Program-made: the position numbers and the translations under genes
Source: Chloroflexota bacterium
Lineage (GTDB): Bacteria; Chloroflexota; Chloroflexia; Chloroflexales; Herpetosiphonaceae
Length of the DNA stretch: 64,000 nt
Direction of reading: 5' to 3'
Assembly: GCA_020161265.1 (NCBI GenBank)
Contig: JAIUOC010000003.1
Span: 235,024-299,023 of the forward strand
Notes under the pieces: model-generated
What the model was told of the DNA's origin: nothing
What the model saw: the letters and a program-made list of their open reading frames with translations, nothing else
Databases searched by the model: none
Shown here: positions 2,694 through 48,644 of the stretch, piece by piece
Layout of the letters: every line of letters starts with the position of its first letter
How positions within the stretch are numbered: position 1 is the stretch's first letter

Positions 2694-2706
2694 AGCCGCC
2701 TCATTA

Positions 2707-3195: not shown

Positions 3196-3212
3196 GGCGG
3201 CCTCACTACTAG

Positions 3213-3707: not shown

Positions 3708-3711
3708 TCAT

Positions 3712-8900: not shown

Positions 8901-9168
8901 CAATTGAAACATCAGTTGTACCAGCAGCAGCACGATAAACGACGCGATGCCCATTCAAATCAACTGGATTGGCACTGATATTATGAATTTCGATAAATTC
9001 ATCATCGGCGGTACCGCCAGCGGTTTGGAATTGACTAATGACAAGGGAGGTTGATACAGCACTGGTCGGAGTGGTGTATGTTGCGGACAACGAAGTACCA
9101 ATCAACGTGAACAGCATCGTTAACGCTGTTAGGAGTCGTAAACCCTTAAATTGCACAGAATCCTCCAC
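5998..9168 (-). CDS. ExeM/NucH-family extracellular endonuclease (lamin-tail domain + endonuclease/exonuclease/phosphatase domain + C-terminal DUF11 repeat)
   Basis: 1056 aa, signal peptide; LTD-like segment (FIEIHNISANPVDLNGH...); EEP motifs (INVLNYFN..., VIGLMEIENDG, SDHDPIVVGL); C-terminal FTYTLTIRNTG conserved-repeat domain. Confidence 0.65.
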   Translation of the reverse strand: MEDSVQFKGLRLLTALTMLFTLIGTSLSATYTTPTSAVSTSLVISQFQTAGGTADDEFIEIHNISANPVDLNGHRVVYRAAAGTTDVSIASWTTSVVIPAGGFYLLGRATSYDGTVTADATFGSGISGTGGGFAIRNGDLNTGTIIDSVGFGSATNAFVEGTVVAAPSANNSAQRNNTSCTDTDNNAADFSLLTPSAPRNSSSPVATCGGSPTDNPPTVASTVPANAANNVALNANVTLTFSEPVTTTGTWYTISCTSGTRTASVTGGPTSYVLDPSSDFAASDACTVTVVASQVTDRDGSVDAMAQDYSFNFNVSSGVACSGGTVTPIGQVQGTGETTPANGTVVTVQGTVVADFEGAQPALRGFYLQDAGDSNDATSDGIFVFNGGADQVALGQVVRVTGTAGENQGQTQLSGSLTVELCGPTNTVTPTQVTLPFASTTDAERFEGMLVQFNQKLVVSEHYLLARFGQVTLSLNERLAQPTNVVSPGAPALALQAQNNLHKIILDDPFNNQNADPILFGRGGTGLSAANTLRASDSITGLQGVMTYTWGGNSASPNSYRVRVTQSPNFVAENQRPTSLELDGSLRVAGINVLNYFNTFGNGNCTGGVGGSATDCRGAENSAEFLRQADKTVAAIIMTQADVIGLMEIENDGFGSTSAIQDLVNRLNTATAPGTYALVDVDTRTGQTNPLGTDAIKVALLYKPGKVSLAGTTAVLNTGAFGDFTTSSGTTGRNRPALTQSFTETSSGETFTVVVNHLKSKGSACTDNVSPVPSDPDLGDGQGNCNLTRKTAAQELVAWLNTDPTNVDDSDYLIIGDLNSYAMEDPITAIRNAGYVNIPKTLLGDEAYSYIFDGQTGSLDHALASTSLFSQVADVQELHVNADEPIALDYNTNFKSAGQIVSLYNNDAYRASDHDPIVVGLALGATPTANFSTSTKTVSSTSVEQGEVFTYTLTIRNTGAAEGSFSLSDVINSNLQIVSVTGGLTINGQTVSANSSLAPNSNKTYTIAVRSVGNFVGSVGNTAVLNSNINLTADSVTVNATTTPSFTVYMPLVTKN

Positions 9169-9387
9169 GATTCATGTAGAAACGCCGTCCAGAACAACTG
9201 TGACGGCTAACCAACGCGGGAACCTTCAGTTCTGAAATGTCATGCTGCATAAAGAAGATAAACCGCATGTCAATGCTGCTTTAACTGATGGTTAAATCTT
9301 GTAGGGTCTGAGTGTACCATAGACATAATCAACGGGCAACTTAGGCCAAAAGTACCCCCCTCTTTCTCAGCGAATCTTCATTGCACG

Positions 9388-11040: not shown

Positions 11041-11056
11041 AAAATCGATGTTGCAA

Positions 11057-11096
11057 CAGCCTCAGTTCTATGACTGGGGCTGTTTTTTTGTTTGGG
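11057..11096 (+). terminator. rho-independent terminator
   Basis: Hairpin cagcctcagt/actggggctg followed by TTTTTTTGTTT. Confidence 0.5.
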
Positions 11097-11099
11097 AGC

Positions 11100-11531
11100 A
11101 TGATTATGGAATGGCAAAAGGGTGACTATACGATCAGCACTGATTCAGCTCGGCTTGATCATGCGGCAATTGTTGACGGGCTGCATCAAACCTACTGGGC
11201 TGCCGAACGAGCGCCAGCAACAATTATTCGTTCGGTGAAACATTCGTTGTGCTTTGGGGTTTATCACGGTCAGCAGCAAGTAGGCTTGGCACGAGTAATT
11301 ACCGATTACGCGATTTTTGCCTATTTAGATGATGTTTATATTTTGGCTGAACATCGTGGTCATGGCCTTGGCAAGTGGTTGGTGCAAACCGTGCTGGCTC
11401 ACCCTGATTTGCAAGGCTTACGCCGTTGGCTGTTAGCAACTAGAAATGCCCATGGTTTGTATGCTCAATTTGGTTTTATCCCAATTGCCTCAGCCGAGCC
11501 ATGGATGGAAATCTTCAATAATCAAGCCTGA
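11100..11531 (+). CDS. GNAT family N-acetyltransferase
   Basis: Motif A region VGLARVITDY...HRGHGLGKWLV; start moved to ATG after the terminator (track ORF begins at 11007 and overlaps the upstream gene). Confidence 0.6.
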   Translation: MIMEWQKGDYTISTDSARLDHAAIVDGLHQTYWAAERAPATIIRSVKHSLCFGVYHGQQQVGLARVITDYAIFAYLDDVYILAEHRGHGLGKWLVQTVLAHPDLQGLRRWLLATRNAHGLYAQFGFIPIASAEPWMEIFNNQA

Positions 11532-11676
11532 AATGGAATCAGCTTTGCACGTTGATTGAGCAGATTTGGCGCAGGGAAGATAAAATTTGACAAGAAAGCT
11601 AAAGCTGATTATAATACCACGGCACTAAACAATTGAATAACGAAATGCAACACAAACCAAATGTTGCAAACCACCT

Positions 11677-11763
11677 GCCCAGGTGGCGGAATTGGCAGAC
11701 GCGCTACTTTGAGGGGGTAGTGGGAGCAATCTCGTGTGGGTTCAAGTCCCACTCTGGGCACCA
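11677..11763 (+). tRNA. tRNA-Leu (anticodon GAG), type II, CCA encoded
   Basis: Acceptor GCCCAGG/TCTGGGC, long variable arm, anticodon loop UUGAGGG by analogy with bacterial tRNA-Leu. Confidence 0.8.
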
Positions 11764-11783
11764 AAATCGTTATTCAATCAGAT

Positions 11784-11859
11784 GGGTGATTAGCTCAGTT
11801 GGTAGAGCGTCTCGTTTACACCGAGTAGGTCGGGGGTTCGAGTCCCTCATCACCCACCA
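11784..11859 (+). tRNA. tRNA-Val (anticodon UAC)
   Basis: GGGTGATTAGCTCAGTTGGTAGAGC...TTTACAC anticodon loop...GGTTCGAGTCC...ATCACCCACCA. Confidence 0.85.
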
Positions 11860-11941
11860 ATGCCACTTTAGCTCAGTTGGTAGAGCATACGACTGAAAAT
11901 TGTAGGGTCTCCGGTTCGAGCCCGGAAGGTGGCACCAAATC
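11839..11941 (+). repeat. attL-like 103-bp direct repeat (3' 21 nt of tRNA-Val + tRNA-Phe)
   Basis: Identical to 48542..48644. Confidence 0.7.
11862..11937 (+). tRNA. tRNA-Phe (anticodon GAA)
   Basis: GCCACTTTAGCTCAGTTGGTAGAGC...CTGAAAA loop...GGTTCGAGCCC...GGTGGCACCA. Confidence 0.85.
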
Positions 11942-12131
11942 TAGACAACCAGTGATGAATTTCATCGCTGGTTGTTGTGTTTTTACTACAGAAACTAGCT
12001 GTAGTAGTTCTATGGGGTGATGGCATCATTCAGGAGGCAAGATCCCCGCTTGATGCCTAGCCTACCCTTCCTCACTTCAATCAATATTGCTATTCATCAT
12101 CGAACCTTCGTTGCACTTGTAAGGGTAAAAG

Positions 12132-12356
12132 CTAAAGGCCACTATCTGGGTTTTCCCTTGGGATAGCATTTTGTGGAACCCGAGCTTGATTGGCTTTTCC
12201 CAACTGTTGCTGGATTCCACTGATCACTTCATTAAGTGAATGGGAAACATTACCGTTTTGGAACTCGCATTCCATTGCTACTCGAACATTGTCGTCAATC
12301 TTATTATCAATAACCAGCGGTTGCACATATTCAACTCGGATTATGATTTTACTCAT
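12132..12356 (-). CDS. hypothetical protein
   Basis: 74-aa ORF, lower-GC region at element edge. Confidence 0.25.
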   Translation of the reverse strand: MSKIIIRVEYVQPLVIDNKIDDNVRVAMECEFQNGNVSHSLNEVISGIQQQLGKANQARVPQNAIPRENPDSGL

Positions 12357-12371
12357 TGAAAGGACTCCTTT

Positions 12372-12593
12372 ATGAGTGACGATGCAGAAATGTTCATTTC
12401 CATTACTTTCAAGGATGCTAGTAAAAGCGATTACTACATTGTTAAGCGTTCAGTATTAGAACAAATAGTAAAAGACTTCAATAGTTATCTTGAAACAGGA
12501 GCATTCCTTCCTGGCTCTTATGAAGCAAGAACTCGTGGAGGTCCAAGCGTTCTGCTTTCGATAAGGTTCAGTGATGTACGGATGATTGGATAA
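12372..12593 (+). CDS. hypothetical protein
   Basis: 73-aa ORF divergent from previous. Confidence 0.25.
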   Translation: MSDDAEMFISITFKDASKSDYYIVKRSVLEQIVKDFNSYLETGAFLPGSYEARTRGGPSVLLSIRFSDVRMIG

Positions 12594-12707
12594 ATGGTGC
12601 TGATCCTGAGCCGAGGGATTACAAGATTGGTAGCCCACAAACTTGTCAGCTAACACAATGGGAAAATTGACGAAATGTGATCCTTGAGCGAGCAGGAGTA
12701 AGGTGTA

Positions 12708-13121
12708 ATGCGAAAAATGCTCACATTAGGGTTCGTTGCTCTTTTGCTTGGAGCATGTGGCCAATCGAATCAACAAAAGATCTTGGGTAAATGGCAAATC
12801 GATGGTGAGACGGTATATGTCACAGATGGATCGATGATTACCCTGAATGGCCCAGAAATGTGCTACCAACTAGAGGGCGATACGATCAAGACGGCTTTTG
12901 CCAATCAAGCAACTATACCGTCATCATTGCGCCAGCAATTCAAAAGTACTCTGAAATTTGATGGCGATACGATGACGATGATCCCAGAAGCAACTGATAG
13001 TACTAATGTTTATACCCGTATCGGTGACATCTCAGATCAAGATAAATTGTTGTTGGTTGAGAAGAAACTTCGCGAACCAGGAACACCTTCTTGTTCTGAT
13101 GTTATGAATAGCTTTAAATAA
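12708..13121 (+). CDS. lipoprotein
   Basis: Lipobox LLGAC after basic N-terminus. Confidence 0.45.
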   Translation: MRKMLTLGFVALLLGACGQSNQQKILGKWQIDGETVYVTDGSMITLNGPEMCYQLEGDTIKTAFANQATIPSSLRQQFKSTLKFDGDTMTMIPEATDSTNVYTRIGDISDQDKLLLVEKKLREPGTPSCSDVMNSFK

Positions 13122-13261
13122 CACGGCCACCCACCACCCATCCCAATTAGGCCGTGTATATATGGAATTTAGATTGGTAATGTGCGTTATCTCGTAAGGG
13201 GTAACTGGCTTTGCGTGGTAGTGACTGTTGGTATTTGGCGATGCTCTCCAGTACTACCACA

Positions 13262-13320
13262 AATAGAACTAGCCCATCTCGTAGGTTGCTAAACTGTTAC
13301 GAGATGGGCTAGTTCTATTT
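13262..13320. repeat. 23-bp perfect inverted repeat (hairpin) overlapping the 3' end of the XRE gene; probable bidirectional terminator
   Basis: aaatagaactagcccatctcgta ... tacgagatgggctagttctattt. Confidence 0.45.
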
Positions 13321-13540
13321 TAGACTCTGAACCTTCTTCTGAATCTTCAAAAACCAACAAGTCTTGAACTGTTATACCCAACGCTTTGCACAACTTTGCT
13401 ACTGTCTCAGTAGTAATGTTGATTGTTGGGTTGTTCTTGATGTTCGAAATTCTGGCGGAGGTAAGACCCGTCTGTTCGGACAGATCCTTCACTGAGATTT
13501 TCCGTCTCCACATAATCTCATCCAGATTATTACGAATCAT
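13289..13540 (-). CDS. XRE-family HTH transcriptional regulator (phage repressor-like)
   Basis: ISVKDLSEQTGLTSARISNIKNN HTH motif; divergent from the early operon. Confidence 0.7.
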   Translation of the reverse strand: MIRNNLDEIMWRRKISVKDLSEQTGLTSARISNIKNNPTINITTETVAKLCKALGITVQDLLVFEDSEEGSESKIELAHLVTV

Positions 13541-13676
13541 GGCGACCCCCTATCGAGATGCTATGATTCTAATGTATAGAATAACATCTGTCAATAAGCT
13601 TTATTATGATACTATTCTATTGACATTATTATCATATAAGGTAATATATTGCTTATAAAGATAAGGAGCTACAACA
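13541..13676. promoter_or_regulatory. AT-rich divergent promoter / operator region (putative genetic switch)
   Basis: TTGACA ... 17-18 nt ... TAATAT upstream of 13677; repeated ATTCTATTGACA / TGTCAATA half-sites. Confidence 0.3.
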
Positions 13677-14225
13677 ATGACACACACTAAGGAAATCCGC
13701 TACGACTGCATCACCAAAGACTTCGCCCTCTACTTGAACGGCGAATCGATCGGCTATGCCAGCTCTTACAGCGAAGGCGAAAGCCGCTTGAACGAATTGG
13801 TCTATGACCTGTTACGCCGTGCCTCACACGCTGACATCAGCGACTTGACCCCCGAAGACGCTGATGTCGTCTTGGACGCTACGGTAGCTTTGGCTGGGGA
13901 AGTTATCACCGAGAACAGTGAAATTGAAGAATCAGCAACAGTTGTGGCTGATGTTGCAGCTGCATCAACATTCGAAATGATTGCCGGACCTGGCACTGAA
14001 AAAACTACCTACGTCAACACCCCAATTGATGCCCTCGCCCGAACCATCGCTATTTTGGGTCGCAACTGGCAACGAGCGATCCGCGCGGGCCGCTACGCCG
14101 ATGCTGAGCGCATCGAGTCCCACGAGCAATCCGTTCGCTCGCAATTTCGCGCATTGGCCACCTCACCAACGCCGCCGGCTATTCCCGCCGATCGCCACGC
14201 TCTCGTTCGCCAGATTAAATACTAA
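13677..14225 (+). CDS. hypothetical protein (phage early region)
   Basis: 182-aa ORF with RBS AAGGAG. Confidence 0.4.
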   Translation: MTHTKEIRYDCITKDFALYLNGESIGYASSYSEGESRLNELVYDLLRRASHADISDLTPEDADVVLDATVALAGEVITENSEIEESATVVADVAAASTFEMIAGPGTEKTTYVNTPIDALARTIAILGRNWQRAIRAGRYADAERIESHEQSVRSQFRALATSPTPPAIPADRHALVRQIKY

Positions 14226-14317
14226 ACCCTTCACTGCTCGTCAAAGCAGCAAAGGGCAAAGCGATGACCGAGGTATTGATTGGACTCCTTGCCTCGGTCA
14301 CGAAAGGATGATACCTG

Positions 14318-14626
14318 ATGACTACCGAAACCGTCAATCGTCGAGACCGCCTGAGTCGGGTCAGCCACATTCTCCAGCTTGCCACGATCATTGCGGAAGA
14401 AGAAGGCCTCGACGACAACGCCGCATATGAATTGGCCGAGCAAGAATATGATGCCACGGTGGCTGCCGAGCTGGCGTGGAGTGAGCATCAAATCGTTACG
14501 CCTATCCAAATTATTCCAACCACATGGGGTATGGTGCTACGGCGTGATGGTCAGAGGATTGTTCTAAGTCTCCGCGATGTTGGCCCTGTGGTGCAAGCAC
14601 TTACCGAGTGGGGGCATCGTGTATGA
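14318..14626 (+). CDS. hypothetical protein
   Basis: 102-aa ORF; stop overlaps next start (ATGA). Confidence 0.35.
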   Translation: MTTETVNRRDRLSRVSHILQLATIIAEEEGLDDNAAYELAEQEYDATVAAELAWSEHQIVTPIQIIPTTWGMVLRRDGQRIVLSLRDVGPVVQALTEWGHRV

Positions 14627-14835
14627 ATGGTCGCTACTACTGTATGCAATGCCCAACGGTTTGCCACACGGCTGCCATGCTCGCTTTGCATAAATCTCAA
14701 TCACATCCGCTTATGCCACTGCCAGCACTCAACCCGAATACGCGCAGACAATGCCCAGTGTGCAAACGTATGATCAAGCATCGCGATTGGGCAACCCATC
14801 AAAGCGTTATTCATCCGGCAGCGGAGCCAGCATGA
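14623..14835 (+). CDS. small protein with two C2H2-like zinc fingers
   Basis: C-x2-C-x12-H-x4-H (CMQCPTVCHTAAMLALHKSQSH) and C-x2-C-x11-H-x4-H. Confidence 0.4.
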   Translation: MNGRYYCMQCPTVCHTAAMLALHKSQSHPLMPLPALNPNTRRQCPVCKRMIKHRDWATHQSVIHPAAEPA

Positions 14836-15053
14836 ATCGCAAAAAGCTGTACCGTCCTCGCAAACTGCGAAGACGACAAGCGCCTGAATCCCCAACCTAT
14901 GATCCTGAAGTACTTCGTGCTATGGAATTGGGTTGGCCATGTAAATGCAGCGTTTGTAGGGAAGCATGGGCTGAAATATTTAGCCCAAGTGATAGTAGTT
15001 GGTATTGTCGAGTTTGTTCAACCTCAATTACCCAGGAGCAAATCAATGTCTGA
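14832..15053 (+). CDS. small zinc-ribbon protein
   Basis: CKCSVC...CRVC motif; ATGA start/stop overlap with the upstream gene. Confidence 0.35.
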   Translation: MNRKKLYRPRKLRRRQAPESPTYDPEVLRAMELGWPCKCSVCREAWAEIFSPSDSSWYCRVCSTSITQEQINV

Positions 15054-15384
15054 TACAACATCAACCATCAAAGTAGATCACCAAATTCACTTCACCATCG
15101 ATGGATTCCCATGCACGACCTCGGTTGCGGGCGCGACGGCGGAACAACTGAAGGTGGTGATTGATCGGTTGAAATCGATCGGTGCACAACCACCAACCGC
15201 GCACTCGTCCCAACCAACGGCGGCAGTTGCATCGACGAGCGCTGTGGCCCAACGAACGTGCCCAGTTCATGGAACCGCCTTGCAATTACGCCAAGGTACA
15301 CGGCGCGGCAAACCCTACAAGTTTTGGAGTTGCAACAGCACTGATGCTGATGGTGAATGGTGTGATCATACTGAGAAACCCTAA
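15046..15384 (+). CDS. hypothetical Cys/His-containing protein
   Basis: Start MSDTTSTIK overlaps the previous stop; C-terminal CPVHG...FWSCNS...EWCDH. Confidence 0.35.
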   Translation: MSDTTSTIKVDHQIHFTIDGFPCTTSVAGATAEQLKVVIDRLKSIGAQPPTAHSSQPTAAVASTSAVAQRTCPVHGTALQLRQGTRRGKPYKFWSCNSTDADGEWCDHTEKP

Positions 15385-15535
15385 GCCAATCGCGAAACGA
15401 ATAGCATGGCTATCGCGATCAACTGACCGATGATGGATGACCCGCCAGCAGTCCAAATCAGGCTGTTGGCGGATGTTTTTTTAGCGCGAAACGGTTATGA
15501 TAATATGAATTATACAAACCGCTGGAGAGTCGAGC

Positions 15536-16525
15536 ATGAATAATGATTTTACACTCGCATTAACTACCCTTGCTGCAAGTACGCCAGCTGCAATTCAACC
15601 AACCACCAACCCCTTTATCGCCTATATCGCTAGTCTGCAAAGTGCCAATAGCCAACGCACCATGGAGAAGCAGCTGCATAGTTTGGCAACAATGATGGGC
15701 TTTGCCGATGCGCATGTGGTTCCGTGGTCGCAGCTGCGGGTTGAACATACCCAAGCCTTGTGGGCCAAACTCGCCAGCAGCAAATCAGCATCCACCGCCA
15801 ACCTCATGCTCTCGGCGTTACGCGGGGTGCTGAAGATGGCGTGGCGCATGGGCCTGATCACTGGTGAGGACTACACGCGAGCGGTTGATCTCAAAACAGT
15901 CAAAGGGAACGCACCCGATGCCGCAGCGGGGCGATCGCTCACCGCTGCCGAACTCCGCGCCTTATTTGCCGCGTGTGCTGCTGATTCATCGCCCGTTGGG
16001 CGGCGTGATGCGGCGATTCTGGCACTGGCCTATGCCGCTGGCGGTTTGCGTCGGGCGGAGATCGTTAATCTCGATCTGGCCGACTTCAATCCTGAAACGG
16101 CGATGCTGACGATTCGTGGCAAGGGCAATAAGGTGCGGACGGCATATGTGCGGGGTGGTGCGCGTGATGCCCTCGACGAGTGGCTGGCAGTGCGTGGCGA
16201 TGAAGCTGGGCCACTCTTCTGGCGCTTACAAGCTGGTGGTGTGGCAGGCCAGATGTATGAGCGGCTTAGTGATCAGGCGATTTATATCTTGTGCCAGCGA
16301 CGTGGCAAGGATGCCAATGTGCGGCATTTCAGCCCGCACGATATTCGACGAACCTTTATTAGTGATCAACTGGATGCGGGAACGGATGTCTTGACGGTTG
16401 CCCGGCTGGCAGGTCACAGCAATGCCAACACCACGAGCCGCTACGATCGGCGGGGTGAGCGAGCCAAACAAGCTGCGGCTGATGCATTGCATGTGCCATT
16501 TGTTGTTACACAATTTGATAAATAA
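15536..16525 (+). CDS. tyrosine recombinase (XerC/D / phage integrase family)
   Basis: Catalytic residues: R (LRRAEIVNLD), HDIRRTF, HSNANTTSRY (R..HxxR..Y). Confidence 0.8.
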   Translation: MNNDFTLALTTLAASTPAAIQPTTNPFIAYIASLQSANSQRTMEKQLHSLATMMGFADAHVVPWSQLRVEHTQALWAKLASSKSASTANLMLSALRGVLKMAWRMGLITGEDYTRAVDLKTVKGNAPDAAAGRSLTAAELRALFAACAADSSPVGRRDAAILALAYAAGGLRRAEIVNLDLADFNPETAMLTIRGKGNKVRTAYVRGGARDALDEWLAVRGDEAGPLFWRLQAGGVAGQMYERLSDQAIYILCQRRGKDANVRHFSPHDIRRTFISDQLDAGTDVLTVARLAGHSNANTTSRYDRRGERAKQAAADALHVPFVVTQFDK

Positions 16526-16548
16526 AATAATTGATGAAAGGATTTATA

Positions 16549-17331
16549 ATGGCTAAACAAGTAAAAATACCCATATCAAGACAAGAGTTAGAATCTCAGC
16601 TTGAAGATCACCTACATTTCCTTCAAAAATCATGTCAAGATTTTGATAATGGTGATGAACGTGAAGCTAAAAGAATATCAATAACACTTAGAATCCTATT
16701 ACATAGCACCCGTACTTCTCATAGTTTATTAGATCAACTAGGTCGTAAAAATATATCATTTTATGATACATCTACCGATGATTATAAAGGTAATCTATCC
16801 ATATATAAAGGATTAACAGCTGAACAACTTATTCCTGGTGGAATAGTGTATAAAGCTCGTCTACAAAAATTAAGGAGCAGTCGTTGGACTAAATTTGATG
16901 AATGGTGGACAAAAATTATTATGGATAATAGGAAAGGTCTTACTTTCTCACGAAGAGATTTTGTTCTATATGTGGCTGATCAAGATGGTGGTGCCCATGT
17001 AGATCCTGCAATTGATGAAAGATATGTAGAATTATCACGAAAAAACCCAATGCAGCTATTTATTGCTGTTAATGCTAACCAAGAACCTGTTACTCATATC
17101 GAACGGGTTACTATTCGCCAAATAGCACATGAGGTCTTAGGAACAATGATTCCTAACTACACTTTTATTCCTCCTCCAATCACACATGAAGGGCCTTGGG
17201 TTGCTGATTTAGCAGTTGTACCCGGAACAAAACCTCCGCCTACAACGCCCATTAAGAAAATTGGTAGAAATGATCCTTGCCCTTGTGGTAGTGATAAAAA
17301 ATACAAATATTGTCATGGTATACAACGATAG
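16549..17331 (+). CDS. SEC-C-motif protein with uncharacterised N-terminal domain (AT-rich cargo gene)
   Basis: C-terminal GRNDPCPCGSDKKYKYCHG; GC visibly far below surroundings. Confidence 0.5.
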   Translation: MAKQVKIPISRQELESQLEDHLHFLQKSCQDFDNGDEREAKRISITLRILLHSTRTSHSLLDQLGRKNISFYDTSTDDYKGNLSIYKGLTAEQLIPGGIVYKARLQKLRSSRWTKFDEWWTKIIMDNRKGLTFSRRDFVLYVADQDGGAHVDPAIDERYVELSRKNPMQLFIAVNANQEPVTHIERVTIRQIAHEVLGTMIPNYTFIPPPITHEGPWVADLAVVPGTKPPPTTPIKKIGRNDPCPCGSDKKYKYCHGIQR

Positions 17332-17396
17332 CTTAATATAGGAGGAGTGCTATAATTGTTAACAGACTTTTCAATATAGAATCAATTATAATCACG

Positions 17397-17987
17397 ATGG
17401 CTAATATACTGAACATATCGGATAAGGAGTACCAAATGATGAATCTGATAATGGAGAATATTCTGAAACAGCAAAATGACTTTAACGAAAAATCATCTAT
17501 GATCAAGAAGAAATTCGATGATTTTTCCGCTGAATTTATACATAACCTAAAAAATGCTGTTTCCGAAGGATCGCGGATGGGTATAAAAGATATGAATTTT
17601 GTGAGTGCTAAAAGCCTATCAAATGAAATTTCTGAAGATATATTTAAATTAAATAATAGAGAATACGTAATTATTACAGATAGTAGAGCTAATTATATTT
17701 TTGTGAAAAATAAATTACCTTTAATTACATATAGAATGATTATATATAATAATGATAAAAATGCAATGCCATATATGATTATAAATTTACAAGAAAACGG
17801 AGGTAATTCCATAAAGTTATATATAGAGAGATATACATCTACAAATGATAGCGATATCATACATCAAGAAAATGACATAGACGATAAAAGTCCATCTACA
17901 TCTGTTCAAGAAGTGATACGTTATATATATAATACAAAAAATATGTGGCTTAGTGTACCACTATATAAATATCATGAAAAATCATAA
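17397..17987 (+). CDS. hypothetical Asn/Ile/Lys-rich protein (AT-rich cargo gene)
   Basis: 196-aa ORF, extreme AT bias, no known motif. Confidence 0.4.
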   Translation: MANILNISDKEYQMMNLIMENILKQQNDFNEKSSMIKKKFDDFSAEFIHNLKNAVSEGSRMGIKDMNFVSAKSLSNEISEDIFKLNNREYVIITDSRANYIFVKNKLPLITYRMIIYNNDKNAMPYMIINLQENGGNSIKLYIERYTSTNDSDIIHQENDIDDKSPSTSVQEVIRYIYNTKNMWLSVPLYKYHEKS

Positions 17988-18004
17988 CTTATATCTCGAA
18001 ATAC

Positions 18005-33690: not shown

Positions 33691-35457
33691 ATGCTTGATC
33701 CCCAATTCCAAATTCTGATTCAGGATCTGACGAGTAGCCAAATGCTGGATGTCTCCGATCGAGTGACTGCTGCCACGTGGCGCTATACCGAGCAGGGCTG
33801 TGGTGATCTCAGTGTCACCATGCCCTGCACCATGCCGGAAGCCTATTGGTTCAAAACGCTGCCGTTTATCTATGTCAAAGTCTTCAACCGCTGCTCGAAG
33901 CGCATCTGGTGGGGCCGTGCTGCTGGCGATGATGTAACAATTACCCGTACCGCAGATGGGGCTGTCTCAATCCAGATTCTGGCCTTGGGCCTCGTCAAAG
34001 CGCTCGAAGATATTCCGCATACGGGCTGGTGGAGCAGCACCCGCTATGGTGATTGGCAGGACGTAACTAGCGACCTGATTCCCAGTCGCACGCCCGAACG
34101 CTTCAGCTTTGAAACCGAGCGGCGCTTGCGGATTGCACCATCGGGCGGCAATGGCTTCACGACCAGCAGCATTGGTATGTTGTCGATTGTGCAGCCCGCT
34201 GCGGCCAGTGTGCAGTGGCAAACGATTGAGGCGAGCTACACCCTGAAAGCGCCTGCTGGATGGCGAGCCAGCTTGAGTCGTTATGATGGCACAACCTTTC
34301 TTTCCTCGCTCTGGACACTCGATGGCATTGGCACGGGCGCGACCGGAATCACCACGCAAAGCGGCACGCTGAGTTTCCTGAGCGGGGTTGGCTGTTCGCG
34401 CTTGGGCTTTAATCTGTTTTGTACCCGTGCGGCCACCAATCTCCATACCGCCGCAATTACGGCAGGCACGCGCACGGTCACGCCCGGTACGATGGCAGGC
34501 ATCGCGGTCAATGCCAAGTTGGCGATTGGCGGCGCGGAGCCGGAGGAAGTCGTGGTGACGGCCACGACCGCGACAACCTTTACCGCCGTGTTTCGTAATG
34601 CGCACCTTGGCAGCGATCTGGTGGAGCCACTGTGGGATGGCAATGATGGCGATATTGAGTTGATCATCACCAACGTGCGCGTGAAAGCCGTGACGACCCC
34701 AACCGTGACGCTGGATCAACTGGCCAAGTCTGCCTTGAGTGAGGTACTGGCCGTCAATCCATGGGCGGTCTTTAATAGCGATGGCAAAGTGCAAAGTCCG
34801 ATCGTCGATATCGCGAATCTCGTAGCTGACGATCAGCCGTGGGCGACGATCCTGAGTGAGCAGGTGCCGCTGGGGGATACCAGCAATCGCCCATGGGTGT
34901 GGGGTGTTGATGAGGATGGGGTGCTATTCGTGCGGCCTCGCCAGTCAGGGCGGGTCTGGTATGTGAGTACCGAGCAATGCAGCTATACCCAAGGCGGCAA
35001 TAGCGATGGACGCTGGACGAGCGGCTATGGGGTGTATGAGGATGAGCAAGGCCAACGCCAGCGCACGCCCATCCAAACCGATGCCCAAGCGTTGGCCAAT
35101 AGCGGGTTGGTGCGGCGCACCGCGCTATCAGTTGACAGCGGAACGCTCGCCGTGGCCATGCAGCGGACGAGCGTGTTTCTGAGTGATGCGGCCAAAGGCG
35201 AAGCCGCTGCCAGCCTGATCTGTGCGGTGCTGGAAACGGTGGATGGCATGGTCTATCCGGCAACCGAAGCGCGACCGGGGGACATGCTCCTGTTCCGCGA
35301 TGTGCTGCCCACCAGTAGCGCCGTAGCCAATCGCCTGAATGGTTTTGTCTTGGCCGAAGTGCGGGTGGATGGCTTCAATCTCGGCGCAGTGCAGCTCGTG
35401 CCGGAGGAGCCGCTGCCATGGTTGGAGATGATGACCGCCAAGGTGGGTATGAAGTAA
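33691..35457 (+). CDS. tail tip / tail fibre-like protein candidate
   Basis: 588 aa following distal tail protein. Confidence 0.4.
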   Translation: MLDPQFQILIQDLTSSQMLDVSDRVTAATWRYTEQGCGDLSVTMPCTMPEAYWFKTLPFIYVKVFNRCSKRIWWGRAAGDDVTITRTADGAVSIQILALGLVKALEDIPHTGWWSSTRYGDWQDVTSDLIPSRTPERFSFETERRLRIAPSGGNGFTTSSIGMLSIVQPAAASVQWQTIEASYTLKAPAGWRASLSRYDGTTFLSSLWTLDGIGTGATGITTQSGTLSFLSGVGCSRLGFNLFCTRAATNLHTAAITAGTRTVTPGTMAGIAVNAKLAIGGAEPEEVVVTATTATTFTAVFRNAHLGSDLVEPLWDGNDGDIELIITNVRVKAVTTPTVTLDQLAKSALSEVLAVNPWAVFNSDGKVQSPIVDIANLVADDQPWATILSEQVPLGDTSNRPWVWGVDEDGVLFVRPRQSGRVWYVSTEQCSYTQGGNSDGRWTSGYGVYEDEQGQRQRTPIQTDAQALANSGLVRRTALSVDSGTLAVAMQRTSVFLSDAAKGEAAASLICAVLETVDGMVYPATEARPGDMLLFRDVLPTSSAVANRLNGFVLAEVRVDGFNLGAVQLVPEEPLPWLEMMTAKVGMK

Positions 35458-35673
35458 CAAAGATTATTTTTTATATTAAATCAAGACTGTGGGTGTTCAC
35501 CCGCAGTCTTATTATTACCTTCGATGAATTGAGTCTAATTGTATTCCCACATGCCAATACAGGTGATCTTTGAATAGTACATAGGTAGACCCATTAGGGG
35601 ATAGTCGGTAATGCAAGATTATTTCATAATAACTTAAATTACTATAATCCATAGTATAAGAAGTGAGGATGTT

Positions 35674-37182
35674 ATGAGTAATTCACTTTATTATGGAGAC
35701 AATCTTGACGTACTACGTAGAAAAATTCGCGATGAGACGGTTGACCTCTGTTATATCGATCCTCCATTCAACTCTAAAAGAACCTACAATCAAATCTATA
35801 ATAATTTTGGCCAAGAAGATAAGGCTCAAGCTCAAGCATTTATCGATACTTGGAAATGGGATGATCATTCAAATAGCGGGTTAGCCCAAATCTTTGATAA
35901 TACTCATGGTTTATATCCATCACAGTGTATAGAATTAATTAATGGACTCCTAAAGGTACTAAGAAAAGGCAGTATGCTTGCCTATTTAGTAAATATGACC
36001 CTTCGTATCGCAGAAATTCATCGAGTATTAAAACCATCAGGAACATTCTTTCTCCATTGTGATCCTACGGCAAGTCACTATCTGAAACTTATTCTTGATA
36101 CTATATTTGTTTCTCAAGGTGGCGAATTTCAGAATGAGATTATTTGGTGTTATTCAATTGGTGGGAAATCAAGCAAACGATTTGCAGAAAAACATGATGT
36201 TATACTTTTTTATACAAAGTCAAATGATGATACCCACACATTTAATAGACAAGGTGCTATCATTCCCCGCAAACCAAACAGTCATATGAAAGTACGTTCT
36301 ACGGCTGATGGGAGACTATATCAAGAAAAAACTGATAAAAAATCAGGAAAAGTATATCGTTATTTTCTTGATGATGGGAAAATTGCTGAAGATTGGTGGA
36401 TAGATATTGAAACCTTAAATAGAGGAGATAGTGAGCGATTAGGATATCCTACGCAGAAACCTGAACGCCTTCTGGAACGCATTATTGGAACATTTAGCAA
36501 TGAAGGTGATTGTATTTTTGATGCTTATTGTGGATGTGGTACTACTATTAATGTTGCCCAACGATTAGAACGGAAATGGATTGGAATTGATATTACATAT
36601 CAAAGTATAGGATTAATTTTACGACGTTTAGAAGACTCATTTGGAACACAGTCCGTTACAAATATTCAGCTTTCTGGTGTGCCGCGAGACATGGATGGAG
36701 CTAGGGCATTAGCGAATAAAAAAGACGATCGCACTCGTAAAGAGTTTGAGAAATGGGCAGTTCTTACATTTTCTAATAATAGAGCAGTCATTAATGATAA
36801 AAAAGGAGCTGATCATGGTATTGATGGTAAAGCTTTTGTTCAAGAATCGATGAATAATCAGAGACCTATTGTATTTTCTGTTAAATCAGGTCATAACTTG
36901 AATGTATCAATGGTTCGCGATTTACATGGTGTTATTGCAAGAGAGGATGCTGCGGCGGGTATCTTGATTACTCTTGAACCACCTACAAAACCAATGAGTC
37001 ATGAAGCAAAAGCCGCAGGAACGTATCAAAATCCCTATATGAGTAATCCATTTGATCGAATTCAATTAGTGAGTGTTGAATCTATTCTCCAAGGAGAACG
37101 GCTTCGGTTACCATTAACTCATGAGGTTCTTAAACGCGCAGAGACTTATTCAGCAGGAGAAAACTTATCTTTTGGGCTATAA
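35674..37182 (+). CDS. DNA methyltransferase (N6_N4 beta-class, DPPF motif) fused to a C-terminal Mrr_cat-like restriction-endonuclease domain
   Basis: N-terminal LCYIDPPFNS; C-terminal ADHGIDGKAF...VFSVKSG...VRDLHGVIAREDAAAGILITLEP; AT-rich. Confidence 0.7.
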   Translation: MSNSLYYGDNLDVLRRKIRDETVDLCYIDPPFNSKRTYNQIYNNFGQEDKAQAQAFIDTWKWDDHSNSGLAQIFDNTHGLYPSQCIELINGLLKVLRKGSMLAYLVNMTLRIAEIHRVLKPSGTFFLHCDPTASHYLKLILDTIFVSQGGEFQNEIIWCYSIGGKSSKRFAEKHDVILFYTKSNDDTHTFNRQGAIIPRKPNSHMKVRSTADGRLYQEKTDKKSGKVYRYFLDDGKIAEDWWIDIETLNRGDSERLGYPTQKPERLLERIIGTFSNEGDCIFDAYCGCGTTINVAQRLERKWIGIDITYQSIGLILRRLEDSFGTQSVTNIQLSGVPRDMDGARALANKKDDRTRKEFEKWAVLTFSNNRAVINDKKGADHGIDGKAFVQESMNNQRPIVFSVKSGHNLNVSMVRDLHGVIAREDAAAGILITLEPPTKPMSHEAKAAGTYQNPYMSNPFDRIQLVSVESILQGERLRLPLTHEVLKRAETYSAGENLSFGL

Positions 37183-37398
37183 ACCCTATAATGTATAGCA
37201 GTCATACATTCTCATAACAAGCGGGTTTATTTATAAATTTAATGCTGATTATTGAAAATTTGCAATCAGTGATTTCATTACTACGCACTCGAGAACTTGA
37301 TATGACATAAGTTGTGATATAGCGGCGGTATAGCTCGTTTCGGAGGAGCCGCTGCCATTGCTGGAGATGGTGGTGGCGAAGTCTGCTATTCGCGATTA

Positions 37399-37445
37399 AA
37401 TAAACACGACAGCTATCTTATCAATAAGGTAGCTGTCGTGTTTAA
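37399..37445. terminator. bidirectional terminator hairpin between convergent genes
   Basis: 12-bp stem acacgacagcta/tagctgtcgtgt, T-rich flanks. Confidence 0.45.
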
Positions 37446-37447
37446 AT

Positions 37448-38644
37448 TTAGGACTTTAAAGTGATATCCTTTTCGAAAGGATTATATGTTCCTTGGGTTG
37501 CTTCAATAAGAAATGGTTTGATGAGTTCCTCTGCAATTCCAAGAATATTACTTTGTACAACTAAAGCACTATGCTGGGCTATTGTTTCAAATGAATCTCT
37601 TTCCATTATAGGAGAATCATAGCTTTGTCCACGAAATACCTTACTTCCCTGAATTCCTTCGATACGTAAACCGATATTGAGATTCCCTATATATCCCGCT
37701 TGTTGATATAAGTGATTTGCTATCCATAAAGTTTGAACCAATATTTTAGCTATACCCGCCTCGAAGAGGAAAAACCAATCCTCTCCTTTCTCCGAAATTC
37801 TCCCACAGCATATATATATTGAACCATCATGATGAACATTGACTGATATATTAGAGGCTAATATATCATGATTTTTAGCTGGATCAGAACCTCTATAAGC
37901 ACGAAATTTCCAGCCTTCAATGATACGTTTATCATTTTGTACTCCATCAATAAAAGATGGATTAAAACCTATGTTGAAATTGTAGGCCTGATGAGCTTTG
38001 GCTACCAGTTCATAAAAAGATCTATTCCAATCTGCATCATTAAAACGAGGAATACCTGAAAACACTTGGGTAAATCCTTGGGTTGGTTTGATAGCAATAT
38101 ACATTCTTCCATAATCTGGATGAGGAGGAATGTCGAGTATCTTTACAGCATCCTTAATGATCTCTCTCGCACTTGTTTCTCCAGCAAGACGACGCTGATA
38201 GAGACGTGCAATATCACCTTCGTTTAATGGAATGTTACCCCGCGAACTCCGTCCATAAAATCGATTCTCTTGTTTAACCGTAACCTGATGCGGCGCAAAG
38301 GGCGATGATGGAATTATCACAACGATATATCCCTTCAGCGGATCTGCTTCTGCGGAAAAAGCAGATATATGAATTTTGAGCGGTGGTTGCAGACTGTACA
38401 TTGCTATTTGAGCCAGTTTTTCTGGAACGCCGTCTAAATCGATTGGAGTAAGGATTTTTAATTGACCATTCTCTTCGCCAATACCGTAAATAATCACACC
38501 ACCATCATTCGCCATAGCAGCAAAATCTTTGGCGATCTCTACAGATTTGCTCGCAATTTGCTGTTTCGCATCAAAGGTTGCCGACTCTTCAATACCTTGG
38601 TCAATGGCTTGTTGCAATTCTGCTTCAGTTTTTGGAATCCACAT
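37448..38644 (-). CDS. AlbA_2 (Schlafen-like) domain protein
   Basis: N-terminal FDAKQQI...AKDFAAMANDGGVIIYGI matches the AlbA_2 pattern; about 200 aa uncharacterised C-terminus. Confidence 0.5.
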   Translation of the reverse strand: MWIPKTEAELQQAIDQGIEESATFDAKQQIASKSVEIAKDFAAMANDGGVIIYGIGEENGQLKILTPIDLDGVPEKLAQIAMYSLQPPLKIHISAFSAEADPLKGYIVVIIPSSPFAPHQVTVKQENRFYGRSSRGNIPLNEGDIARLYQRRLAGETSAREIIKDAVKILDIPPHPDYGRMYIAIKPTQGFTQVFSGIPRFNDADWNRSFYELVAKAHQAYNFNIGFNPSFIDGVQNDKRIIEGWKFRAYRGSDPAKNHDILASNISVNVHHDGSIYICCGRISEKGEDWFFLFEAGIAKILVQTLWIANHLYQQAGYIGNLNIGLRIEGIQGSKVFRGQSYDSPIMERDSFETIAQHSALVVQSNILGIAEELIKPFLIEATQGTYNPFEKDITLKS

Positions 38645-38756
38645 AGATACCTCGTTATTAATTTCTAAAGAGCTATTATTCTGTCGCTATGCACGGTTTA
38701 ACATTGACGCTAATAAATAGCTAAGCGTAAATTTCGTTTACGCTTAGCTATCTCTT

Positions 38757-39071
38757 TTAAATCAAATCTGACATAACATCCACCAGATCTTCCCAGTGTT
38801 TTTGCAGATCGATTTTAGATATCTCTTTCAATACTTGCCTTTCTATTAACAAGTATGCTAGTTTATAACTAACCTTCAAAGCAAACTCCTTAAGTTTGTT
38901 TTGCTGATATACTGTAGTATTGGATTTGGTGAAAATCCCTTGTTGATCTGCGACAGGACTAAATTTCGCAGTGGTACCATCCGACTTTAAAACCTTGGTG
39001 TTTGCAGCACTAAGGTTTTTTCTTCTTTTAGGTTCATGCCGTTGCTTGTACTTTTTCGATCGTTTTTTCAT
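38757..39071 (-). CDS. small Lys-rich hypothetical protein
   Basis: 104-aa ORF, KKRSKKYKQRHEPKRRK basic N-terminus. Confidence 0.3.
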   Translation of the reverse strand: MKKRSKKYKQRHEPKRRKNLSAANTKVLKSDGTTAKFSPVADQQGIFTKSNTTVYQQNKLKEFALKVSYKLAYLLIERQVLKEISKIDLQKHWEDLVDVMSDLI

Positions 39072-39400
39072 ATGAATTCCTTTTGATGATTATTTAAGCT
39101 AAACACTTAGGTTTAGTTCGTGGCTAGTCATATACGGCTCCTTATTAGATTACGAAATTTACAAGTGTGAGTAATTTATAGATTACATAATGACTCCTTT
39201 TCTGATTTTAGATACAAAAAAACCCGCAAAGATTTTCACTAAATCTTTACAGGCTTTATTAGATATAAAATCTAATTGTAAAGACGTGATCATACACAAT
39301 ATTTGCGGTACGATCCGTCAAATGGAATAGGTGATAAACCTATATTTCAATGGTAGCGTTATTTTTTATTCCTGTCAAGTGCTATTTTGAAACAAATATT

Positions 39401-40336
39401 CTATATCTTTGCCTCAAACCACCCTGCCCTTAAAAAGCGATGCGGCTGCTGAATGCGTTGGCCATGTTTTGTATACTGGGCTGTCCAGATCGGCGTGAGA
39501 ATACCTGACTCACGCACATCATCAATCGTGGCGATCAGCAATTGGCTCCCGGGCCAGCCGATTTCCCATGCATCGAGCACTGCCCGTTTGCGACGTTCGC
39601 TCGGCACGGTAAAGGCAATCAGCGGCCATTGATAGCGACCTTCCCAATACTTCGAGCGATACAACTCTCCATAGGAGTGGGCTTTGCCCGTGATAATACT
39701 CAGCTCCTCAGTTCCCCGATCAATCTCGATCGCATAAAGTTGATCGATCTGCCCCTGTTGTTGGCCAATCCCAAGCCACGGATACAACGACGAGCGCTCG
39801 CAATCGGGCTTCGTCGCATCAGCCCAGCGGCGCACCACGACAATCCCATCAGCGCGTGGCCGTGCGGTTGGGCCTAAGTCCATCTCAATATAACTGCTCA
39901 TGCCGACAATACCAGGCACATATGGTAGCGATTGAATCAAACTGGTGATAACCTCGGCATACTCAATTTGATGTTCAGCCTGGTGCTGCGGATTAAACAT
40001 CGTGGGTGCAAGTCGCTCACTGCCTTCTTCAAGCATGGGTAAGGCCTGTTTGACGATCTCCCAGCCGAGCGGCGTGAGACTATATAGGCGGCCATGGCGC
40101 GTCCAGCCGATTGCACCACGCGGATCATAGCCATGCGATTGAAAGTGTTCGCAGTAGGTCAGTAATTTCGCATCAACCAGTTTGACCAACGTGCGATTGA
40201 CCGTTTGAATCGTCACGGTAAACGGATGCCCCCAGGCTGTGCGTAGGTGACGCGAGAGTAATCGGCCAAGCCGAGCAACGAGCACGAGGATCTGCATTTC
40301 GATGGGATTCAAGCCAATGGGTGTTGAAAATACCAT
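39401..40336 (-). CDS. winged-HTH protein, replication-relaxation-family-like candidate
   Basis: N-terminal wHTH-like segment; adjacent to FtsK-like ATPase as in conjugative elements. Confidence 0.35.
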   Translation of the reverse strand: MVFSTPIGLNPIEMQILVLVARLGRLLSRHLRTAWGHPFTVTIQTVNRTLVKLVDAKLLTYCEHFQSHGYDPRGAIGWTRHGRLYSLTPLGWEIVKQALPMLEEGSERLAPTMFNPQHQAEHQIEYAEVITSLIQSLPYVPGIVGMSSYIEMDLGPTARPRADGIVVVRRWADATKPDCERSSLYPWLGIGQQQGQIDQLYAIEIDRGTEELSIITGKAHSYGELYRSKYWEGRYQWPLIAFTVPSERRKRAVLDAWEIGWPGSQLLIATIDDVRESGILTPIWTAQYTKHGQRIQQPHRFLRAGWFEAKI

Positions 40337-47292: not shown

Positions 47293-47508
47293 TCACGCAA
47301 GGAGAGAGGAAAGGCTGATAGGTTCTCGTTGTGGTGCTGGTGGGGGGGGATTGAGAAAGTGACATTCCAGCATCAATTGAATGCGGCGCAGTCGTTCCAC
47401 GTGGACGCTATTCGCATTCATTGGTAACGAGCGCTCGGCTATTTGTAAGGTAAAGACTAGGTCGTCCAGATCCTGTTGTTGTTCCGGTGATAAAGTGTGA
47501 GATTGCAT
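47293..47508 (-). CDS. small hypothetical protein (possible regulator)
   Basis: 71-aa ORF divergent from integrase. Confidence 0.25.
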   Translation of the reverse strand: MQSHTLSPEQQQDLDDLVFTLQIAERSLPMNANSVHVERLRRIQLMLECHFLNPPPPAPQREPISLSSLLA

Positions 47509-47635
47509 AACAGTTGCAACCTTTCTGCTACCGTGTGTAGCGGGTTGTTGTCATCGTCCTGTAATCTAGCGCTCCAAAAAGAGAAAATTGGTTGCACCTT
47601 ATATAGGGTGTGTACATTTTGTGAGGAGCGTTTAA

Positions 47636-48510
47636 TGCCTACGATTCACTCTCTACTTCCTGCATATGAGCGTTCTATGCGCTCACGTGGGCAACGCCCA
47701 AGGGGTATCCAACGCTATATCGCCCATCTCCGCAGCTTCCTCGTTCACGCTGGGAATGATTTTGATATCGTTGATCTGAAGCCACGCGACATTCGCAGGT
47801 TTCAAGAAGTCCGTTGTGAGGAAGTGGCCCTTCGCACCGTCCATGGTGCGTTGACGGCCCTTCGCTCGTTTTGCCTTTGGGCTATCGAGGAAGAGTACAT
47901 TGCAGACGATCCGACTGCGCGAATGCGATGGCCCAAGCTACCAGAAACAGCCCCAAAAGCATTGACGCGTCAACAGCTTCGCCGTTTGATGACAGCCCTA
48001 GAAGAGCCGATTGACTTGGCTACTCATGAGCGATGGCAATGGCGGCGAAATAGACGGGTTATTTTATTGATGTTATTTGCTGGGTTGCGTATGTCGGAAG
48101 TGATTGACCTACGCTGGCGCGATGTCGATCTTGATAATCGCGTCTTGGTTGTGCGTGATGGAAAGGGCGGGCGAGCACGTTCGCTACCCATTCATGCAGC
48201 ATTGGCAAAAGAGCTTAGTCGTGTTGCTATAAAAGATCCAGAGTATGCGGTTGCTGGTCGGAGCGATGGTGCTCCAGTATCCCGCGATCACGATAAGATG
48301 TTTCGGCGCTGGTTGAAGGAACGTGGTGTCGAGTTGAGTGCTCACCAGCTGCGTCACACGTTTGCGACTGAATTAATGCGGAGTGGTGCAAATTTACGGT
48401 ATATCCAAGAACTTATGGGCCACCGTAGTATTGAAACCACCCAACGCTATCTCTTGGTCGAGCCAGATGTGCTACGGGTTGCTGTAGCACAAATGCCTGC
48501 TGCCTGGTAG
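47636..48510 (+). CDS. int: tyrosine integrase
   Basis: RBS GAGGAG; catalytic motifs LRMSEV..., HQLRHTFAT, HRSIETTQRY; adjacent to att repeat. Confidence 0.8.
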
Positions 48511-48541: not shown

Positions 48542-48644
48542 CGAGTCCCTCATCACCCACCAATGCCACTTTAGCTCAGTTGGTAGAGCATACGACTGAA
48601 AATTGTAGGGTCTCCGGTTCGAGCCCGGAAGGTGGCACCAAATC
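48542..48644 (+). repeat. attR-like 103-bp direct repeat
   Basis: Identical to 11839..11941. Confidence 0.7.
48565..48640 (+). tRNA. tRNA-Phe (GAA), second identical copy within the att repeat
   Basis: Same 76-nt sequence as 11862..11937. Confidence 0.8.

Follow-up and report, generated by a model that had tools for sequence, protein, structure and literature searches.

Genes of the AT-rich block and its variable slot

We analysed a 64,000-nucleotide (nt) stretch of contig JAIUOC010000003.1 of a Chloroflexota bacterium (assembly GCA_020161265.1), here called the window, and in it an AT-rich block that a prophage carries between its last tail-module gene and a gene for a Replic_Relax protein. 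The GC content drops from ~0.60 in the tail genes to 0.33–0.40 over positions ~35460 to ~39400 and is ~0.53 beyond; taken piece by piece, it is 0.59 in the tail gene, 0.36 in the methyltransferase (MTase) cassette, 0.39 in the Schlafen gene, 0.33 in the region of a 104-amino-acid (aa) open reading frame (ORF) and 0.54 in the Replic_Relax gene. Three ORFs occupy the block (Table 1). The first encodes a 502-aa fusion of a beta-class DNA methyltransferase with an Mrr-type domain (MTase-Mrr), the second, convergent with it, a 398-aa prokaryotic Schlafen protein (pSlfn), and the third is the basic 104-aa ORF. An initial annotation, made from the letters alone, had described the AT-rich block behind the last tail gene, the fusion, the convergent AlbA_2 protein and the basic ORF among strong hairpins. 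All of these were confirmed, and the three domain assignments held in profile searches. Folding energies were compared with those of shuffled sequences, giving four hairpins with z-scores from −5.5 to −12.2, and an Rfam search of the block gave no match.

The prophage was compared with two sister elements, a 41-kb Logan contig (L002) and a 34-kb IMG/VR contig (L004). Both are collinear with the window, the tail block at ~92% and the Replic_Relax gene at 86–88% nt identity, and the cargo between these two borders is different low-GC DNA in each of the three. In L002, a Schlafen homolog (64% aa identity) directly follows the tail gene; then come a 332-aa protein with no Pfam, PADLOC or PHROGs match, a Lit homolog (PADLOC Lit, E 1.2e-21; Peptidase_U49) and a 47-aa ORF, and the methylase gene is absent. 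The GC content of this cargo is 0.22–0.40, and the very AT-rich part (6858–9973, GC 0.22–0.31) holds the Lit homolog, the 332-aa protein and the 47-aa ORF. The slot of L004 (11773–14538) contains four minus-strand ORFs of 126, 148, 240 and 243 aa of unknown function, of which the 148-aa ORF resembles PDC-M32B and the 240-aa ORF PDC-M32A in weak PADLOC matches to candidate defence proteins (E ~1e-4).

Because the same two border genes enclose different AT-rich DNA in L002, L004 and the window, the block is a variable cargo ("moron") slot, which is exchanged and has defence genes among its cargo. Refilling of the slot would proceed by recombination, with the conserved tail and Replic_Relax genes as homology arms. 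We hold with moderate confidence that the window's slot combines an independently acquired MTase-Mrr gene, a single-gene pSlfn tRNase and a 104-aa ORFan, that is, three modules which would have arrived separately and would not form one system. The block had initially been likened to a phage-borne defence or counter-defence island; the foreign AT-rich phage cargo and the Lit gene in a sister slot make such a role plausible, but the notion of one joint island system was not supported.

Recombination scar between the methylase and Schlafen genes

The tail gene of L002 ends in ...PEEPLPLLEMVVAKAAIRD-TAA and runs straight into the hairpin that it has in common with the convergent Schlafen gene. The same arrangement, an L002-type tail 3' end with its stop codon and hairpin, is found in the window at 37325–37444, where, 3' of the methylase gene, it survives as a dead remnant; the alignment of this remnant with L002 includes the TAA and the terminator after it. 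The functional tail gene of the window has a different, L004-like 3' end at 35457. Two copies of a 57-nt imperfect repeat, spaced 1939 nt apart, flank the MTase cassette. The hairpin at 37401–37444 has 21-nt arms that are 95% complementary and is kept in L002; it is now the sole strong structure downstream of the MTase gene, the interval 37183–37260 being unstructured.

The order of these pieces indicates that the Schlafen terminator was once directly next to the tail gene and that a segment made of a tail 3' end and the methylase gene recombined in later. Since the dead 3'-end remnant and its terminator sit between them, the MTase and Schlafen genes were acquired separately. Alternatively, L002 might be secondary, having lost the intervening segment when the two 57-nt repeats recombined. 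In that case too, the dead remnant means that the tail gene once ended beside the pSlfn terminator, and the Schlafen gene still persists in L002 without the methylase. The earlier view of the two genes as a pair or system is not supported, in view of the pSlfn of L002 without a methylase and the tail-gene remnant between the genes.

The methyltransferase-Mrr protein

In the 502-aa protein, N6_N4_Mtase (PF01555) covers aa 23–308 (E 4.5e-41) and Mrr_cat aa 355–447 (E 2.4e-7, above the gathering score; both Pfam). The PADLOC match is MTase_II, and the DNA methyltransferase family phrog_67 matches over aa 1–480. The motif IDPPF (aa 28–32, with DPPF, a motif IV of the form (D/S)PP(Y/F), at 29–32) stands N-terminal to the S-adenosylmethionine (SAM) motif FDAYCGCGTT (aa 282–291), as in beta-class enzymes. 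Among solved structures, M.MboIIA, CcrM and M.RsrI are closest. The best NCBIfam matches, PRK11524 and CcrM, are adenine-specific and both below cut-off. Because of these matches and of the D (not S) in motif IV, the DPPF methyltransferase is predicted to be probably an N6-adenine (m6A) enzyme.

The Mrr-like site reads E359...D384...S402-V-K404. Its conservation was examined in 278 aligned relatives of 37–70% identity. DPPF was found in 272 of the 273 that are ungapped there, D384 and K404 were present in 277 of 278, and E357/E359 was either E or Q. Position 402 (nt 36877–36879) is dimorphic, with Q in 166 and S in 107 of the 278 relatives; in the window it is S. Enzymes of the Mrr-like MspJI family use PD-QxK for catalysis (PMC12707154). 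Such conservation argues for a functional Mrr-like site; a degenerate domain was not accepted, D384 and K404 being near-invariant.

The family is very large. At least 8000 homologs of 37–70% identity were found, at least 552 of the relatives lying in IMG/VR viral contigs and at least 597 in metagenome contigs; the best 120 homologs align over the full length at 58–70% identity and come from cyanobacteria, Beggiatoa, Chloroflexia, Acidobacteria and Woesearchaeota. In cultured phages the family has 59 records, including those of Streptomyces, Flavobacterium, Mycobacterium (Dori, Mask, Amgine) and Marinitoga MPV1, and in 28 of the 59 the match extends over at least 80% of the protein and reaches into the Mrr-like domain. 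The single-chain architecture is therefore not unusual. The cultured-phage records listed are annotated as DNA methyltransferase or methylase only. A literature search for an N6_N4_Mtase and Mrr_cat fusion found no characterisation, and to our knowledge no member of the family has ever been characterised.

No neighbour family recurred in more than 10 of 158 MTase-Mrr loci. Transposases, recombinases and repressors are most common beside the gene; among the annotated examples from the largest neighbour clusters are an IS1595 transposase, a serine recombinase, an integrase, an S24 repressor and a P63C protein. The gene is solitary in Chloroflexia and Microcystis chromosomes. Since there is no recurrent neighbour family and chromosomal copies are solitary, the MTase-Mrr gene is self-contained and has no obligate partner. 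We also considered the methylase as one half of a classical two-gene Type II restriction-modification (RM) system and rejected this, as no restriction endonuclease (REase) is among the annotated examples from the largest neighbour clusters of the 158 loci.

In its kind the protein belongs with the known phage beta-class methylases. Like the phage orphan MTases (phrog_67; M.MboIIA, M.RsrI, CcrM), it has motif IV (DPPF) before motif I and is a solitary phage gene, for which self-protection from host restriction is presumed; unlike them, it has an additional C-terminal Mrr_cat-like domain of ~150 aa with D-(Q/S)xK, which is absent from the solved relatives and unmentioned in existing annotations. 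With the single-chain RM enzymes of Type IIG/IIC (BpuSI, MmeI) it shares a PD-(D/E)xK-type nuclease-like domain and an MTase in one polypeptide. In Type IIG, however, the nuclease is N-terminal, the MTase is of the gamma class and there is a separate target recognition domain, whereas here a beta-class MTase comes first and the nuclease-like domain last. That last domain is of the Mrr/MspJI PD-QxK type, but the Type IV enzymes of this name carry a modification-reading, DNA-binding N-terminal domain (winged helix or SRA) and no MTase, while the N-terminus of the window protein is the methyltransferase itself. The product of the 1.9-kb cassette would methylate phage and lysogen DNA, and protection from restriction would be its most likely role. 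We infer that the Mrr-like site may add cleavage of unmodified DNA, which would amount to single-chain RM-like behaviour.

The prokaryotic Schlafen protein

SLFN_AlbA_2 (PF04326) matches aa 20–140 of the 398-aa protein (E 4.5e-10; 40.5 bits against a gathering cut-off of 25.3; Pfam), and the N-terminal fold matches the Schlafen nuclease lobe. Homologs are ~395 aa long and align end to end. Among 36 of them, there is no variation at E20, K27 and D47, and at least 90% keep D25 and E57. The family profile matches CbCash (PDB 9ylu; E 1.5e-6), the closest solved relative by sequence profile, and the catalytic E17/D22/K24 of CbCash align with E20/D25/K27. RorSlfn5 and CbCash with a mutated Ex4(E/D)xK neither cleave tRNA nor defend against phages (PMC13056530, PMC13462974). 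In addition, D47 and E57 correspond to D45 and E65 of Avs9, and the four acidic residues match the Avs9 AlbA_2 site (PMC12680541). The AlbA_2 domain had at first been taken for a DNA-binding domain. With the Ex4DxK motif intact, and the motif being essential in bacterial Schlafens, it is better read as a nuclease effector, and no helix-turn-helix (HTH) or other regulator domain was found by Pfam in the protein. No PADLOC, NCBIfam or PHROGs model matched it.

The nuclease domain is fused to a non-catalytic C-terminal domain, a putative sensor, which gives weak TBP-like, AdoMetDC and PGM-C fold matches. Between the window and the L002 homolog (10001–11206), the nuclease domains are 87% and the C-terminal domains 50% identical, against 94–95% for the flanking proteins. 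This divergence between sister prophages suggests diversifying selection or a domain-level allelic exchange. Because a sensor that an arms race drives to diversify would be expected to diverge in this way, we regard the C-terminal domain as a probable sensor. It does not appear to be a modular sensor shared with other proteins, since a phmmer search of the domain against 1.84 billion representatives returned almost exclusively the same ~395-aa architecture. The family is small, with 77 matches in a word-indexed search and 91 cluster representatives (50% identity clusters) for the C-terminal domain, and comes mainly from Chloroflexota. A scan of viral contigs with the single pSlfn protein gave no match.

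The protein is of a known kind, the bacterial Schlafen defence nucleases described in 2025–2026. In common with the pSlfn defence proteins (RorSlfn5, PMC13056530), it has an N-terminal SLFN/AlbA_2 nuclease with Ex4(E/D)xK in a single chain, a fused non-catalytic C-terminal domain, and a mobile-element or defence-island context. Its C-terminal domain, however, differs from the sensors (Ig-like, HisKinase or DUF262) of the examples that were tested, and its family is small (~91 clusters at 50% identity), mostly from Chloroflexota and here prophage-borne. Among pSlfn architectures, TBP-like fusions account for 1.5% and unannotated fusions for 17% (PMC13056530). With Cash (PMC13462974) it shares the aligned E-D-K triad; the pSlfn of the window, however, has no Csx15/CARF-like sensor domain for cyclic tetra-adenylate (cA4), and there is no type III CRISPR locus near it. 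Schlafens with uncharacterised C-terminal domains associated with RM systems already formed a published class in 2026, Cluster 4 of PMC13462974, whereas the initial annotation knew of no named system with this gene pairing.

By analogy with RorSlfn5 and Cash, and because its Ex4DxK is intact, we predict that the protein is a tRNase, most likely a phage-triggered abortive-infection nuclease. The C-terminal domain would sense a cue from an infecting phage, and the triggered enzyme would cleave tRNAs and lead to abortive infection, which would shield the lysogen population from superinfection.

Association of the two genes in other loci

Two of the 14 pSlfn loci have an MTase-Mrr gene, and two of the 158 MTase-Mrr loci have an AlbA_2 neighbour (L083 and L062). 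In Herpetosiphon geysericola, an MTase-Mrr gene whose product is 40% identical to that of the window lies 33 bp upstream, on the same strand, of a pSlfn member (39% identity), and the pair is flanked by transposase genes. The AlbA_2 proteins of L083 and L062 share only the nuclease domain with the window's pSlfn, and the MTases there are 52–53% identical to the Herpetosiphon enzyme and ~39% to that of the window. In a Bellilinea sp. metagenome-assembled genome (locus L009), a pSlfn member is directly followed by a Type III pair of Mod (N6_N4_Mtase) and Res. In two other loci, GmrSD and a DUF6094 MTase-SNF2 protein are at most two genes away from pSlfn. Nine of the 14 pSlfn loci have no RM gene within two genes; their neighbours include Lit, a NACHT protein, HigBA, HepT/MNT, bpMoxR and DUF4145, housekeeping genes in one locus, and several unannotated genes. 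Obligate co-inheritance of MTase-Mrr and pSlfn was thus not found across the relatives, as seen from L002, the locus counts and the scar. Clustering in defence islands most simply explains the adjacency of pSlfn and RM genes, and MTase-Mrr and pSlfn are probably not one new two-gene system.

The Bellilinea locus also shows a longer co-directional run (6913–15484) of genes for a HATPase_c_3 protein (683 aa), a 306-aa protein of unknown function, pSlfn, a Mod-like N6_N4 MTase (534 aa) and a ResIII helicase (890 aa), with gaps of ~30 bp around pSlfn. This cluster may be a composite defence operon.

Alternative explanations

Several observations weigh against the explanation of the slot and its genes given above. 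The Mrr-like site of the window has S where the MspJI-type motif has Q, which makes its nuclease activity uncertain, and there is a weak Pfam match to NA-iREase1 ("inactive REase"). No pSlfn homolog was found in cultured phages by tblastn, and the 104-aa ORF is left unexplained. The pSlfn family is also next to N6_N4-type methylases more frequently than unrelated genes should be, namely in the window, Herpetosiphon and Bellilinea, and other AlbA_2 proteins stand beside MTase-Mrr in L083 and L062; this adjacency could mean functional coupling.

It is possible, though we think it somewhat doubtful, that MTase-Mrr is purely an orphan anti-restriction methylase, whose Mrr-like domain is catalytically dead, serves DNA binding or oligomerisation and confers no restriction-like activity. 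The serine as the middle catalytic residue, in place of Q, E or D, and the match to a family named inactive fit this explanation, as do the solitary chromosomal copies and the abundance of the family in lytic and temperate cultured phages as their only RM-like gene. The near-invariance of D384 and K404, together with the restriction of E357/E359 to E or Q, is nevertheless more conservation than a scaffold needs. Moreover, some Type II enzymes (Cfr10I-type) are active with an S-x-K variant of PD-(D/E)xK.

Another explanation, which we consider unlikely, makes pSlfn a guard of the PrrC kind, held latent by, or monitoring, an adjacent RM enzyme based on an N6_N4 methylase, the two genes being a facultative defence unit; a phage anti-restriction factor or SAM depletion would disable the RM enzyme, and pSlfn would fire. 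EcoprrI-PrrC and Lit (of e14) are likewise prophage- or island-borne and act in abortive infection by shutting off translation, a Lit homolog being present in the L002 slot, and PrrC too is a tRNase gene beside an RM module. PrrC, however, has an ABC-ATPase domain and sits within a Type I operon, neither of which is present here. The L002 slot has pSlfn without a methylase, the genes of the window are convergent with a recombination scar between them, most pSlfn loci (9 of 14) have no RM-type gene close by, and AlbA_2 neighbours are rare among MTase-Mrr loci. Defence-island clustering alone can yield such adjacency, and the fold match is generic, at 6% identity.

A broader proposal is that the pSlfn family guards N6_N4-methylase RM modules (MTase-Mrr, Type III Mod/Res) and, as a corollary, that MTase-Mrr is a new class of single-chain beta-MTase RM enzyme spread mainly by phages. 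We regard this as distinctly improbable. If it were true, the TBP/AdoMetDC-like C-terminal domain would respond to a SAM-related metabolite or to the state of the methylase, with pSlfn firing once anti-restriction measures of the phage disable modification or restriction. Finally, it is highly improbable that the AlbA_2 protein is DNA-binding or regulatory and makes up, together with the methylase-nuclease fusion, an unnamed new modification-restriction system of two genes. The sister prophage L002 largely refutes this; moreover, the protein has no HTH or regulator domain, its nuclease motif is intact and conserved, and the genes were acquired separately and occur apart. Independent acquisition of the genes into an exchanged slot is the explanation that we keep.

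Host element, 104-aa ORF and other features

The slot belongs to an element of ~36.6 kb (11942–48541). In the window, this element lies between two identical copies of a 103-bp direct repeat, each of which includes tRNA-Phe and the final 22 bp of the tRNA-Val region. A tyrosine integrase gene (47497–48510) abuts the right copy, and the genes between the repeats include a structural module of 60% GC and genes for a ParM-like actin, a primase, a DUF3987 protein and Replic_Relax. The two copies of the repeat are the probable attL and attR of the prophage that carries the cargo block. From the tRNA-Phe repeat, the integrase and the ParM-like, primase and DUF3987 genes, we conclude that the element is an integrated temperate tailed-phage-like element at tRNA-Phe. 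DNA similarity searches of positions 35000–39500 against cultured phages and plasmids gave two short matches to methylase genes and nothing else, and the window has no close sequenced relative in these sets.

The 104-aa ORF, which would be the third module of the slot, carries 23 basic residues. An ORF of this length would arise by chance in its AT-rich stretch with P ~0.01, and an AAAGGA ribosome-binding site lies 7 nt upstream. A search of 5.8 billion proteins returned the ORF itself only; it has no Pfam, PADLOC, NCBIfam or PHROG match and is absent from L002 and L004. The spacer between the Replic_Relax gene and this ORF (39072–39400, minus strand) contains a sigma-70-like promoter match (10 of 12 positions, 39378–39350), a terminator-like hairpin and a mini-ORF of ~10 codons behind a strong AAGGAG site. 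The spacer may be a regulatory leader.

Table 1. Positions of the features of the prophage and its cargo slot in the window
Feature	Position (nt)	Strand	Remarks
attL-like repeat copy, tRNA-Phe	11839–11941	+	103-bp perfect direct repeat
Last tail-module gene, 588 aa, left slot border	33691–35457	+	95–96% aa identity to L002/L004 orthologs
Left copy of 57-nt imperfect direct repeat, 3' end of functional tail gene	35386–35442	+	79% identity to 37325–37381
Hairpin just past tail-gene stop codon	35483–35510	+	−19.5 kcal/mol, z −6.2
Beta-class MTase with Mrr-type domain, 502 aa	35674–37182	+	MTase domain ~35740–36597; Mrr_cat ~36736–37014; site D384, S402, K404
Right repeat copy and remnant of older tail-gene 3' end with stop codon (acquisition scar)	37325–37399	+	Base-for-base match to L002 tail 3' end
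Bidirectional terminator hairpin of ancestral tail gene and convergent Schlafen gene	37401–37444	both	−29.6 (+) and −25.5 (−) kcal/mol, z −12.2
pSlfn, 398 aa	37448–38644	−	Nuclease domain aa 1–150 (nt ~38195–38644); C-terminal putative sensor aa ~176–398 (nt 37451–38119)
Ex4DxK motif of pSlfn	38564–38587	−	E20/D25/K27 (E20-SATF-D25-A-K27), plus D47, E57
Terminator-like hairpin between 104-aa ORF and Schlafen gene	38715–38753	−	−22.3 kcal/mol, z −5.5; inverted repeat
Basic ORFan, 104 aa	38757–39071	−	pI (isoelectric point) 10.0; 18 K + 5 R, 13 of them in the first 30 residues
Terminator-like hairpin with T-run, downstream of Replic_Relax gene	39219–39257	−	−19.9 kcal/mol, z −6.1
Replic_Relax gene, right slot border	39401–40336	−	Pfam E 5.2e-8; 93–94% aa identity to L002/L004 orthologs
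attR-like repeat copy, tRNA-Phe	48542–48644	+	Adjoins integrase gene 47497–48510

In the left part of the prophage there is another AT-rich island (15536–17987), which follows a second integrase gene (15536–16525) and has a GC content of ~0.31 at 17001–18000. The island, which may be a second cargo site, has genes for two proteins, one of 266 aa with a SEC-C motif at its C-terminus and one of 196 aa without a Pfam match. A near-palindrome of 62 nt, 84% self-complementary, lies at 13261–13320 in the left arm. Outside the prophage, on the minus strand at 2202–4194, there are four tandem ORFs of ~160 aa; those at 2652–3195 and 3154–3692 are 76% identical in DNA, which points to an array of recently duplicated paralogs.

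Implications

The analysis does not overturn the current understanding, and its main value lies in candidate genes for experiments. The slot is a clear case from nature of exchanged prophage cargo: the AT-rich defence or counter-defence genes are all that distinguishes three near-identical backbones, with MTase-Mrr and pSlfn in the window, pSlfn and Lit in L002, and four ORFs of unknown function in L004. A conserved, nuclease-like site of the Mrr type is recognised in a very large and phage-rich family of methylases, and the newly recognised bacterial Schlafen defence proteins are extended to prophages of Chloroflexota. The loose, recurrent linkage of pSlfn with N6_N4 methylases and RM genes provides a testable hypothesis, namely that members of this Schlafen family may act as PrrC-like guards.

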